Positions 1 to 3,280 are shown, counted from the first letter of the stretch. The stretch: 3,280 nt of DNA from Dictyostelium discoideum (GCA_000004695.1 CH709164.1:1-3280), one strand, 5' to 3'. Notes: generated from the sequence alone by a model not told the origin. Numbers and translations: made by a program.

Positions 1-89
1 GATATATTAATCAGTGGTGTTCTTTTCCTAGATTCGTAATCTGCTATCTTTCACAGAGGCATTGGTTTATTTCAGTTGCTCCAATTCAA

Positions 90-434
90 ATGTTAGAAGA
101 ACTTTACACTATGAGTAAATCTTCAAAATATTCAAATCAAGTACTTTTTTCAAGTGGTAAAGAAGAATATTTATCAAGTTTTAATAACTTTATATCTCAA
201 AGATTTGATGATTTTAAAATTATACTTCAAGAAGTTTCATCATTTAATGATAATAATAATAATAATAATGAATTACAACTATTTAAAAATTTAAAAATTG
301 ATTCAAATTTATTAATGAAATATACAGATACTATAATTACTTTAATTTCAGAGAAAAAACAAAATTTAATTGATAATGATGATAATCAATTTAATGATGA
401 AGTCTTGGGAACCATCAACTCTCAAAGTATATAG
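90..434 (+). CDS. Hypothetical low-complexity ORF (poly-Asn). Frame +3 is open from window position 3, so it may continue upstream of the window. It is possibly the C-terminal tail of the element's upstream ORF, and it overlaps the YR ORF in another frame across 370-434.
   Basis: Frame +3 runs from position 3 to the TAG at 432-434. Codon usage is Dictyostelium-like (AAT, GAT, TTA) at about 20% GC, with (AAT)6 at 252-269. I recognise no conserved domain. Composition jumps to about 38% GC near 400, where the YR domain begins. Confidence 0.3.
   Translation: MLEELYTMSKSSKYSNQVLFSSGKEEYLSSFNNFISQRFDDFKIILQEVSSFNDNNNNNNELQLFKNLKIDSNLLMKYTDTIITLISEKKQNLIDNDDNQFNDEVLGTINSQSI
246..269. repeat. Trinucleotide tract aat gat (aat)6, encoding NDNNNNNN in ORF 90..434.
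   Basis: Read directly. Confidence 0.9.
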
Positions 435-1316
435 CTCCAGTTATACAAGATTCCGCAATTTCTGTACTTTGAACTCTTTGAATCCAGCAAACATTACCTT
501 AGTTGTTTTCATGGATTATCTTACACATCTTTTCAAGCACAAACCTCCGTTAGCCTTCTCAACAATTAACGGTCATAGCTCTATGTTGAATCAGTTGTTG
601 CTCCTTAGGAATCAAACTGATATTGTTAATGATCCATTCATTACAAGAATTATAACTGGTATTCACAAGTTACGTCCTTCATCAGCAAAGTATAAAGAGA
701 TATGGGATGCAAATCAAGTATTCAAGCACTTATCTACTATCAAAGTCATCCCCAAGTTCACATACACTGCGCTATTAAACAAGACACTTGTTCTCTGTAA
801 AATGTTTGGTTTAGCAAGATCATAAGACTTGGTGAAGTGGTCGTTCAAAGGTCTCATTATTACTACTGACTCAATCAAAGGTCCAGTTATTAATGCTAAA
901 GAACAAAGAAGTGGTGTTGTTTCAATCTTATAATTAACTTCGTTAGATGATACAAACTCCCAAGTATGTCCTGTTCGCCTCCTTGCAACATACCTTAGAG
1001 CCTCTAAAGGAAGAAGAAAGCCCCATTCGGGTGACTCTGTCTTTGTTAAGAATGAGGGTGAACCTCTGGAAGTTAATGATATTAATTCAATTGTATTATC
1101 AACACTCTCAAGCTCCGGTATTGATACTAGCAAGTTCAAATCTCACTCTACCCGTTCAGCTATGGCTTCTCTGTGCTGTTGTCCAATAATGTTCCTTTCC
1201 ACGTTGTCAATAAGATGAGTCGCTGGAAATCAAACGATACTGTAGATACCTTCTACGATAAAAGAATCATTGGTGAAAAATCTGGTGCCACTATTTATAC
1301 GTTTTTATTTTCTTAA
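370..1316 (+). pseudogene. DIRS-like tyrosine recombinase (integrase-family YR), copy 1. It is disrupted by in-frame TAA codons at 823-825 and 931-933 and by a 2-bp (tg) insertion frameshift at about 1172-1175, which moves the reading frame from +1 to +3.
   Basis: The translation carries the YR N-terminal core-binding-like segment (SWEPSTLKVY...FRNFC...VVFMDYL...FSTINGHSS). Box I reads GLARS*DLVKWSF, with the TAA at 823 sitting at the usual Glu of R-x-x-E-L. A K-E-x-R hairpin region (NAKEQRSG) and box II H-x-x-R (KFKSHSTRSAMAS) follow. After the frameshift come RWKSNDTVDTFYDKR, which holds the W and the catalytic Tyr, and a stop at 1314-1316. The ORF track splits this gene across 370..825 (+1) and an off-frame 947..1189. 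Confidence 0.75.
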
Positions 1317-1417
1317 AAATTTCGCAAAACTCATAAAAATAAGTGTTTTCGACCCTTCACAACTTTCTGCACTGTGTCGGTTCGGAATTTTTATGTTTTT
1401 CGACCTTGCGCAATGAT
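1284..1417 (-). repeat. Truncated inverted copy of the distal roughly 120 bp of the 291-bp HSE-bearing unit. It behaves like a right-terminal inverted repeat abutting the YR stop codon.
   Basis: By manual alignment, 1284-1417 is the reverse complement of about 2266-2386 and 2561-2699 at roughly 90% identity, including ggtgccactatttatacg matched to cgtataaatagtggcac. The homology stops abruptly after caatgatcg at 1417. Confidence 0.85.
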
Positions 1418-2100
1418 CGAAGACAGGGGCCTCACGCATGCTAACCAAAGCAAAAGCTTTATTAAGTAAAATAAAAATACTGTTCGATATTATACGAACG
1501 AGCCTTCGTAAACGACGCATGTCTGTGATTATAGCAAACACGGACTCCCTTAACTGGGAGCCTTACTATGCCCCCATACGTTTTTCAACTATACACTATC
1601 TCTGTATAATACTCACTTATTAAAGGAATACCCATGCAAACACTCATTTTAAACTGGAAGGCGATTCAGTCGACCGACCAAGGTTTACACCCGAGAGCAA
1701 AACCAATGACTTGACTATAAACAGGACATTGTCGGTGAATTATTTGAACCAACTGATATCCACCCTGATATCACGTGGACTGTACTAGATTACAGTCATC
1801 GCGACTATACAGGCGATATCTATTACGATCTCTTTGCCTTTAAAGGTGACGATGATGTAGGTGACGAAGAGAGTCAGTTAGAGACTCTGTTATACCTCAC
1901 TACACCAACTGAGATAGATTTTAACTTATTGGCGTTTGGGGCAATTTCAGTAATTGACGATGGTGAAGGGGATTGACATTCTTAGTAGATGGTATGGCAA
2001 TCGTGGAATTACGGTTTACTGTAGAATCAACCTGTTGTAGAATCATATATACTGACACAACGGTCATTGGACTTTATACAGAACAGGGTCAGGGGTGTTT
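1418..2100. other. Unique central segment at roughly 40% GC, lying between the two inverted repeat blocks. I cannot place its origin. Its last roughly 30 bp show weak similarity to the unit end.
   Basis: I find no match to any other part of the window. GC content is clearly higher than in the flanking AT-rich repeats. It contains small direct repeats: ctgatatc twice (1753 and 1765) and tgtagaatca twice (2019 and 2035). Confidence 0.5.
1710..1976 (+). other. Met-less open frame of 88 codons bounded by TGA codons. It is acidic (GDDDVGDEESQLETLLYL...). It could be an exon or captured coding fragment, or chance.
   Basis: I translated frame +3 codon by codon from 1710 to 1973 and found no stop. 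A TGA sits at 1707-1709 and another at 1974-1976. There is no ATG, which is why the ORF track does not list it. Confidence 0.2.
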
Positions 2101-2198
2101 ATGACAGTCTTTGAGTTTGCGAAATTTATATTATCATATATATATATTATGAATAACATTTATTTATTTGAATTTCCCAAATATTTAAGATAATTTTT

Positions 2199-2216
2199 TA
2201 GAATGTTCTAGAACAT
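2199..2216. promoter_or_regulatory. Heat-shock element in unit 1. Three alternating perfect pentamers (aGAAt gTTCt aGAAc) sit inside the 14-bp perfect palindrome atgttctagaacat. An A-rich TATA-like run (aagaataaaaaaa) follows.
   Basis: tagaatgttctagaacat matches the Pelham consensus CTnGAAnnTTCnAG at 13 of 14 positions. The palindrome was checked by hand. Confidence 0.55.
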
Positions 2217-2489
2217 GAGAAGAATAAAAAAATTTCGAAAGAAAAGTAAAAATTTCGAACCGGCACAATGACGCGATCATTGCACAAGGTCGAAAAACTT
2301 AAAAATTCCGAACCGACACTATGCACAAAGTTGTGAAGGGTCGAAAATACTTATTTTTTTGAGTTTTGCGAAATTTTTAAGAAAATTAAAAATTTAATTT
2401 ATTAAATTATATTTTATATTAAATATATATATATATATTATGAATAACATTTATTTATTTGAATTTCCCAAATATTTAAGATAATTTTT

Positions 2490-2507
2490 TAGAATGTTCT
2501 AGAACAT
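2490..2507. promoter_or_regulatory. Heat-shock element in unit 2, identical to the unit-1 HSE and 291 bp downstream of it.
   Basis: The same tagaatgttctagaacat sequence, followed by gagaagaataaaaaat. Confidence 0.55.
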
Positions 2508-2740
2508 GAGAAGAATAAAAAATTTTCGAAAGAAAAGTAAAAATTTCGAACCGGCACAATGACGCGATCATTGTCTAAGGTCGAAAAACTGAAAAATTCC
2601 GAACCGACACTATGCACAAAGTTGTGAAGGGTCGAAAACTCGTATTTTTTTGAGTTTTGTGAAATTTTTAAGAAAATAAAAACGTATAAATAGTGGCACT
2701 AAAAAACTAAAACAATTTGATTTATGGAATTCCGACTTAG

Positions 2741-2756
2741 GGCGGGTGGGATGGGA
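2741..2756 (+). other. Canonical G-quadruplex motif GGGCGGGTGGGATGGG, preceded by TTAGGG.
   Basis: Four GGG runs with loops of 1, 1 and 2 nt, read directly. The surrounding sequence is more than 85% AT. Confidence 0.5.
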
Positions 2757-2818
2757 CTAATATATATATATATAATATAAAAATAATTTAATAAATTAAA
2801 TTTTTAATTTATATTATC

Positions 2819-2842
2819 ATATATATATATATATATATATAT
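2819..2842. repeat. (AT)12 microsatellite. Shorter (AT)7-8 tracts sit at 2423-2438 and 2761-2776.
   Basis: Read directly. Confidence 0.9.
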
Positions 2843-3280
2843 TATGAAATTTGGACGACAGTATTTAAGAAACCACCAGATTTTTCACCAATGATTCTTT
2901 TATCGTAGAAGGTATCTACAGTATCATTTGATTTCCAACGACCCATCTTCTTGACAACGTGGAACGGAACGTTATTTGACAACAGCAGAGAAGCCATAGC
3001 GGAACGGGTAGAGTGAGATTTGAACTTGACAATATCAATACCTGACTTTGAGAGTGTTGATAGTACAATTGAGTTCCTCTCATTAACTTAGAGAGGTTCC
3101 CCCTCATTCTTAATAAAGACAGAGTCACCCGAATGGGGCTTTCTTCCTCCTTTAGAGGCTCTAAGGTATGTTACAAGGTGGCGAACAGGGCATACTTGAG
3201 AGTTGGTATCATCTAATGATGATAATTCTAAGATTGAAACAACACCACTTCTTTGTTCTTTAGCATTGATAACGTGGCCC
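2842..3280 (-). pseudogene. DIRS-like tyrosine recombinase, copy 2. This is the 3' portion; the 5' end runs off the window. It has an in-frame TAA (seen on + as tta at 3088-3090), and its C-terminus is altered by the 174-bp segment, with the stop falling at 2842-2844.
   Basis: The reverse complement of 2874-3280 aligns to copy 1 at 880-1290 at roughly 90-92% identity. Its translation is ...NAKEQRSGVVSILELSSLDD...KPHSGDSVFIKNEGEPL*VNERNSIVLSTLSKSGIDIVKFKSHSTRSAMASLLLSNNVPFHVVKKMGRWKSNDTVDTFYDKRIIGEKSGG... The frame is continuous through box II and the Tyr motif because this copy has no tg insertion. Confidence 0.75.

Follow-up and report, generated by a model that had tools for sequence, protein, structure and literature searches.

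The internal complementary region of DIRS-1 in a nested Dictyostelium discoideum cluster and its deletion from a neighbouring copy

Introduction

In LTR retroelements, strand transfers at the R region let reverse transcription use repeats to rebuild the ends that are missing from the RNA. The product is linear DNA, made without a circle-junction splint, and it is inserted by a DDE integrase with target-site duplication. DIRS-1 resembles these elements in that repeats rebuild its ends, and differs from them in that a circle-junction splint is used.

The internal complementary region (ICR) has been recognised since DIRS-1 was first sequenced. The published ICR has 88 bp, of which 33 nt are complementary to the 5' end of the left LTR and 55 nt to the 3' end of the right LTR (PMC7192593). 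The model of its function is that of Cappello, Cohen and Lodish (cited in PMC7192593), and the reference sequence is GenBank M11339. The ICR is a double-stranded inverted copy of the junction between the right and left ends of the element. In the mechanism proposed in the literature, the transcript of DIRS-1 and its single-stranded cDNA would lack the outermost terminal sequences, and the antisense single-stranded cDNA would be incomplete, without the left LTR. Both cDNA ends would anneal side by side on the ICR, which would act as splint and template. The missing termini would then be filled in, and the circle would be closed and afterwards made double-stranded. The tyrosine recombinase (YR) would insert the circle at a short sequence of ATT type, with no duplication of the target and often in other DIRS-1 copies. 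That the ICR is essential was shown experimentally in 2020: its deletion abolishes DIRS-1 retrotransposition, with spliced cDNA still being made (PMC7192593).

In DIRS1-like elements, a right extension has been described which is complementary to the right ICR only, together with the concept of a 3-bp circular junction (PMC3266345). The organisation of DIRS-1 in clusters with nested copies is known (PMC3950715), and nesting of DIRS elements in one another at ATT-type sites has been described for the family (PMC3266345, PMC7192593). Here we analyse a stretch of D. discoideum DNA of 3280 bp, called the window throughout, in which two copies of the 3' part of DIRS-1 differ by a segment of 174 bp.

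Results

The window is part of a DIRS-1 cluster of D. discoideum AX4 in which copies are nested. When translated, the YR region reaches up to 95% identity with D. discoideum proteins, the majority of which carry PF00589. RVT_1 and RNase H domains lie upstream of the YR in related D. discoideum loci, which contain many nested copies; the reverse transcriptase (RT) region itself is outside the window, and RT/RNase H were seen in these related loci. The tyrosine recombinase, the RT/RNase H domains of the related loci and termini that are inverted copies of each other place the element in the DIRS order. Eight loci (L001-L008) from other D. discoideum assemblies and from sister species were used for comparison. 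Five are from D. discoideum (L001, L002, L006, L007 and L008), and the other species are D. firmibasis, D. dimigraforme and D. citrinum (L005). A search for full-length copies from terminus to terminus returned only candidates of 4110 and 4255 bp and none at the published 4814 bp; the element length used here is the literature value. The features of the window and of the comparison loci are collected in Table 1.

Table 1. Positions of the DIRS-1 features in the window and in the comparison loci
Feature	Position	Strand	Remarks
Copy 1 tyrosine-recombinase region	397-1287	+	Two in-frame stops, 2-bp frameshift
Copy 1 deletion-junction GTG	1285-1287	+	From pairwise alignment
Copy 1 right ITR fragment	1288-1419	+	Begins 35 nt inside the ITR; truncated by unrelated sequence at 1419
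Left-type terminus of another DIRS-1	2124-2386	+	Begins ATTTATATTATC; inner side cut by copy 2 right end
Copy 2 complete right terminus, 350 bp	2384-2733	-	ITR 2424-2733 and right extension 2384-2423
Segment in copy 2, deleted from copy 1	2700-2873	-	YR tail, ICR, linker and ITR inner end
Copy 2 right ITR, inner 34 bp	2700-2733	-	EcoRI-containing GGAATTCC at 2726-2733
GC-rich linker, ICR to ITR	2734-2757	-	Conserved across species
ICR core	2758-2848	-	Left ICR and right ICR
Right ICR (R')	2758-2807	-	Reverse complement of last ~55 nt of right terminus, ...AAATTAAATTTTTAA, including right extension
Putative circular-junction trinucleotide AAT (ATT on other strand)	2806-2808	.	ICR halves meet; TTTTTAA/TTTATATTATC in every ICR
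Left ICR (L')	2807-2848	-	Reverse complement of left-terminus start ATTTATATTATC...
Last YR codons upstream of ICR (GFLNTVVQ...)	2849-2873	-	From translation
Copy 2 tyrosine-recombinase ORF, 3' part	2874-3280	-	One in-frame stop, hence pseudogene
ICR-less deletion junction			Sequence AAATCTGGTGCCACTAT
Complete-segment copies	L001 (two), L002 (two), L006 (two), L007 (two), L008 (two), copy 2		
Segment interrupted by another rearrangement	L001 1201, L008 16492		2 of 16
Rearranged at left edge of segment	Window copy 1, L002 947, L001 10977		3 of 16
38-nt right-end sequence, context 1			After ...GTTATTCATAAT(AT)n at true element ends, then varied unrelated flanks
38-nt right-end sequence, context 2 (ICR)			Inverted, after GGGCGGGTGGGATGGGACTAAT(AT)n, then TTTATATTATC
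Left-terminus starts matching L'	Window 2124, L002 12789, L003 2011, L005 9552		And others
G-quadruplex site in the window	2740-2755	+	
G-quadruplex sites in other loci	L001 8657, 5042; L002 8294, 3074; L003 10055, 5974; L004 8625, 4151; L006 1917, 11663; L007 5115; L008 3907		

Upstream of copy 1, window 1-396 is AT-rich, non-DIRS sequence with a 114-aa open reading frame (90-434) containing (AAT)n. It meets copy 1 exactly at ATGAAGTCTTGG (397), upstream of which canonical copies have other DIRS-1 sequence, and it gave low-complexity (AAT)n matches only when compared with the fetched loci. Downstream, the sequence that truncates the right ITR of copy 1 (1420-2104) has 685 bp and about 40% G+C. 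A blastn search of it against the 8 DIRS loci gave no match, and its open frame of 88 aa (roughly 1711-1974) had no homologue among the 5.8 billion proteins searched. The AX4 gene model DDB_G0294286 spans window 2-1975 and joins the non-DIRS open reading frame, DIRS-1 recombinase pseudogene fragments and sequence of 1420-2104. The protein P0065 (DDB_G0294286, AX4) has the sequence of this spliced gene model, from window base 2. This 'hypothetical protein' is almost certainly not the product of a real gene.

Pairwise alignment of copy 1 (1100-1440, +) with copy 2 (2540-3060, reverse complement) gave a single clean gap of 174 columns between flanks that are about 91-93% identical. This confirmed what a sequence-only reading of the window had noticed, namely 174 extra bp in copy 2 bounded by GTG. 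Copy 1 reads ...AAATCTG-GTG-CCACTAT at the junction. In copy 2 the segment has a GTG on each side, which leaves the breakpoint uncertain by 3 nt. The YR of copy 2 ends in ...EKSG GFLNTVVQIS-stop and that of copy 1 in ...EKSG ATIYTFLFS-stop. A GTG at both edges is also what a small mobile insertion with a 3-bp target-site duplication would leave, with copy 1 as the empty site, and the window alone cannot polarise the two states.

The two states were polarised by a census of all YR 3' ends in the five D. discoideum loci and the window (n = 16). The complete segment followed by the right ITR was present in 11 of the 16; the remaining ends are rearranged (Table 1). Two copies each from D. firmibasis and D. 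dimigraforme have the same order of YR, segment and right ITR. Identity between species is about 88-90% in the segment, as compared to about 73-76% in the adjacent YR coding DNA. GGFLNTVVQIS-stop or a close variant ends most of the relatives with an annotated C-terminus among the 120 listed, and none of these 120 YR relatives has the tail of copy 1. All full-length matches to the segment lie in the same YR-to-ITR context, and the filled state is the consensus among copies from four species. The only partial match, at 3548-3681 of the D. citrinum locus, lies within DIRS-1 terminal-repeat sequence.

Because the segment is found in most copies and in other species and supplies the consensus YR tail, it is the canonical DIRS-1 state and copy 1 is a deletion derivative. 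An insertion would have to account for its position, shared by 11 of 16 D. discoideum copies and by copies of two other species, for a conserved YR C-terminus and stop codon encoded by the inserted DNA, for its inner 34 bp being ITR that is found at left ITRs too, and for the absence of the copy 1 tail from the 120 listed proteins. We regard it as almost certainly wrong. The GTG is microhomology and not a target-site duplication. The earlier suggestion of either a target duplication or a microhomology-mediated deletion thus survives in its second half, the deletion in copy 1, and its first half is removed by the census. The segment had also been said to rewrite the end of the YR frame. The two tails do differ, but that of copy 2 is the canonical one and that of copy 1 is aberrant. 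The GTG was also considered as the trinucleotide used by the recombinase and was rejected, the junction trinucleotide of the element being AAT/ATT.

The segment had been proposed to be an ICR that joins a terminal-repeat end to a terminal-repeat start, and both of its halves do match the termini by reverse complement. The extent of this assignment has to be narrowed: an ICR is present, but it accounts for only about 91 of the 174 bp, and the rest is made up of the inner 34 bp of the ITR, a GC-rich linker of 24 bp and 25 bp that code for the YR. Its placement between the YR and the right ITR is correct, with the YR stop codon (TAA, 2842-2844) lying inside the left ICR. The YR frame, labelled ORF3 in that reading, is usually named ORF2 in the literature (PMC3950715, PMC3266345).

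On the element strand, the left ICR (2848-2807) reads TTCATAAT(AT)nGATAATATAAAT and the right ICR (2807-2758) reads TTAAAAATTTAATTTATTAAATTAT...(AT)nTTA. On the + strand the left ICR is ATTTATATTATCAT(AT)nATTATGAA, i.e. the start of the DIRS-1 left terminus. The left terminus of copy 2 itself is outside the window, and L' was compared with the left termini of other DIRS-1 copies (Table 1), whose starts it equals except in the length of (AT)n. In a clean copy (L002 2969-3056), exact reverse-complement matches of 34 nt to the left start and 55 nt to the right end share 1 nt and give an ICR of 88 bp in total. The left ICR has 42 nt in the window and 34 nt in the clean copy because its (AT)n is expanded. 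The right ICR has 50 nt in the window, with deletions of 1 nt and 4 nt relative to the right terminus of copy 2 itself. With the (AT)n expansion and the two small deletions, the window ICR comes to 91 bp. The halves abut as TTTTTAA/TTTATATT in every ICR, sharing A/AAT. The 38-nt right-end sequence TTTAATATAAAATATAATTTAATAAATTAAATTTTTAA occurs in two contexts only, at true element ends and, inverted, in the ICR. The inner 34 bp of the ITR are found inverted at the inner edge of left ITRs (e.g. L002 13040-13110). A further 10 D. discoideum copies and 4 copies of the two other species have YR stop, ICR and right ITR in this order.

The 2758-2848 core is very probably the DIRS-1 ICR, as judged by position, length and two-part design, and with the same high confidence the segment is ordinary DIRS-1 sequence and copy 1 a dead deletion derivative. 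Literal ICR strings gave no match in searchable paper text. The ICR of the window belongs to a decayed element, the ICR being imperfect and the YR of copy 2 carrying a stop codon. Right-end and left-end sequence side by side could also be the relic of a real end-to-start junction, left by tandem DIRS-1 copies or by a recombined circle junction, and DIRS-1 copies do insert into each other in the window and in related loci. However, the junction has the opposite orientation to the termini of the element itself and comprises 88 bp only, beyond which the terminal-repeat sequence continues in neither direction. The YR stop falls within it, and its boundaries did not vary among the copies and species examined; such identical recurrence is not that of a chance nested insertion. 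A relic of this kind is very improbable.

The region has 6-23% G+C, (AT)n tracts pair with anything similar, and there are many short inverted repeats in the window. Complementarity could then arise as a by-product of AT-rich low-complexity sequence. The inverted copy of an AT-rich 'spacer' that had been reported was found again, 2383-2414 pairing with 2779-2810 over 32 nt with 97% complementarity, as was the direct copy of a 'unit start' (2123-2147 and 2806-2830, 25 nt, 100% identity). When up to 1 mismatch is allowed, a 26-mer from the spacer match has two sites only, 2386-2411 (-) and 2782-2807 (+), and a 19-mer from the unit-start match occurs only at its two places; neither result was reproduced in 200 shuffles (0 of 200 each). 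The exact 55-nt and 34-nt matches of the clean copy are likewise at odds with low complexity. In the alignment of ICRs with their termini, 96.4% of the ICR/junction cells pair, and a shift of the partner columns by 1-3 lowers this to 41-48%. The probability that low complexity alone produced the complementarity is negligible.

The right half of the ICR is complementary to the right terminus in every ICR listed whose species has a fetched right terminus. D. discoideum has the right end AATAAATT, D. firmibasis AATTATTT and D. dimigraforme AATTAATT, and in all three the ICR is complementary to the species' own version. Two positions have changed on both sides, ICR and right terminus, between species. 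The observed covariation score was matched by 1 of 500 shuffles, in a small sample of 6 rows, 3 species and 2 compensatory positions. The left-end core is invariant in these species, and the covariation concerns the right half only. D. citrinum was left out of this test because no right terminus of the right-extension type was found in its locus (L005). In that locus, a left-type-ended ITR runs directly into the left ICR half (3416-3681). Within this small sample, the complementarity between ICR and terminus appears to be maintained between species.

The 350-bp right terminus of copy 2 agrees with the published start of the right LTR at about 4465 of 4814 (PMC7192593). The sequence that had been labelled an AT-rich inter-unit spacer (2384-2423) proved to be the right extension of this terminus, and the supposed unit start at 2124 is the left-type terminus of a different DIRS-1 that has copy 2 inserted in its ITR. 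The two 'units' are nested elements and not a tandem terminal repeat. At a shared AAT/ATT (2384-2386), at AAGAAAAT^, the left ITR of the other DIRS-1 gives way to the right end of copy 2. The left end of this outer element is at an ATT within a short ITR-like remnant (2105-2126). Both window junctions fit an ATT-type trinucleotide; not all genomic ends do, with an A preceding 11 of 14 left ends and a T starting 5 of the 8 right-end flanks listed (6 of 9 with a degenerate ninth).

Two further arrangements were seen in the comparison loci. The unrelated loci L001 (~413) and L002 (~3428) have DIRS-1 termini inserted into the recombinase gene at one and the same site (copy 1 coordinate ~495). This suggests preferred target sites within DIRS-1 itself. 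At L002 8334-8640, L001 8698-9053 and L003 ~6070-6226, the right ITR that follows an intact ICR ends as a left-type repeat (GATAATATAAAT), without the right extension. Such left-type-ended right repeats may result from exchange between the inverted ITRs of neighbouring elements.

In copy 1, the loss of 174 bp between two GTG triplets took away the inner end of the ITR, the linker and the ICR together with the C-terminus of the YR. Given the published requirement for the ICR, copy 1 would have been incapable of autonomous transposition after the deletion. We infer that the deletion most likely occurred after integration, with microhomology-mediated repair or replication slippage over the self-complementary ICR as its cause. 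As CATAAT(AT)n is present in each half, the strand of the ICR folds into a long hairpin (z = -3.07), and slippage or end joining at GTG across this hairpin is the simplest explanation.

The hairpin and the GTG microhomology at the junction would also suit a deletion during reverse transcription: the RT would have passed from one GUG triplet to the other over the folded ICR, and recombination with resident DIRS-1 copies would have brought the ICR-less cDNA into the genome. Two more copies with the left breakpoint TCTGG(TG), which have 0 private substitutions in common with copy 1, suggest a recurrent process and point the same way. However, a DIRS-1 element without ICR cannot complete retrotransposition in the published assay (PMC7192593), and the end points of the deletion lie 29 and 58 nt outside the hairpin base. 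Replication slippage or end joining explains the same junction, and there are three cases only. We consider an RT jump possible but rather doubtful, and we favour the deletion of copy 1 after integration.

The left breakpoint TCTGG(TG) is common to 3 of the 16 D. discoideum YR 3' ends (window 1285-1287, L002 940-950 and L001 10977 on the - strand). The copy at L002 947 carries an ICR deletion of 179 bp whose end points are within 5 nt of those of copy 1; the right breakpoints of the two are 5 nt apart, in the palindrome TAGTG-C-CACTA. At L001 10977, TCTGGTG is joined to an inverted ITR piece, again at GTG. Common descent of the deletions in copy 1 and L002 947 was rejected: the two share 0 private substitutions, and L002 947 is closest to an intact neighbour. 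From these sequence comparisons, the two deletions are probably independent. Recurrence at one spot in 3 of 16 copies is suggestive of a recurrent process or hot spot, within this small sample.

The linker between ICR and ITR reads GGGCGGGTGGGATGGG on the + strand at 2740-2755, the only G-quadruplex motif in the window. In 149 kb of DIRS loci from four species, searched on both strands, all 13 matches to the standard four-run pattern are this ICR-adjacent site. Three species have kept the four G-runs, with loops that differ; the linker of the D. citrinum locus has three G-runs only. A G-quadruplex-aware fold strongly preferred the quadruplex, as computed with RNA parameters. The motif is on the antisense strand, which is the strand of first-strand cDNA and of the E1 antisense RNA. 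An antisense transcript is driven from the right LTR (PMC3950715). No paper in the open-access literature mentions both DIRS-1 and a G-quadruplex. A predicted quadruplex could hold the ICR single-stranded, pause polymerases or mark the start of the second strand. The combined proposal, that the linker quadruplex is part of the end-restoration module and that TCTGG(TG) and TAGTG-C-CACTA form a hot spot, driven by structure or by an enzyme, at which the ICR module is removed, is speculative and we think it unlikely.

Discussion

For annotation, these results mean that the window is to be read as a nested DIRS-1 cluster, that copy 1 in it is ICR-less and dead, and that what looked like tandem terminal repeats belongs to two elements. 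The AX4 gene model DDB_G0294286 is assembled from transposon debris. Where the retrotransposition assay for DIRS-1 is already in use, the conserved G-quadruplex motif and the repeated ICR loss at one breakpoint could be followed at little cost.

PAT-like and Ngaro elements have split direct repeats, and like DIRS-1 they carry internal copies of terminal sequence that are thought to let a shortened transcript regenerate the ends and the circle (PMC7192593, PMC3266345). Their repeats are direct (A1-B1...A2-B2), whereas DIRS-1 has inverted termini and an inverted internal copy of the junction. There is also a likeness to the ICRs of DIRS1-like elements in other eukaryotes (PMC3266345). There, left and right ICR meet at a trinucleotide complementary to the terminal ATT, to which the AAT between the halves would correspond here. 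In both, the right extension is complementary to the right ICR only, and a short motif is common to both termini and both ICRs, in our case CATAAT(AT)n. The sequences themselves are unrelated to those of that survey and the lengths differ (85-130 bp there), and the trinucleotide rule holds here in most, but not all, genomic flanks. The closest system is the published ICR of D. discoideum DIRS-1. The window copy differs from it in being slightly decayed: its (AT)n is expanded, its right half is short of 5 nt, and the element around it is pseudogenised. It agrees with it in species, in element, in position beside the right terminal repeat and in its two-part design. The feature is the long-known ICR of DIRS-1 in the type species, and as an ICR it is already known.
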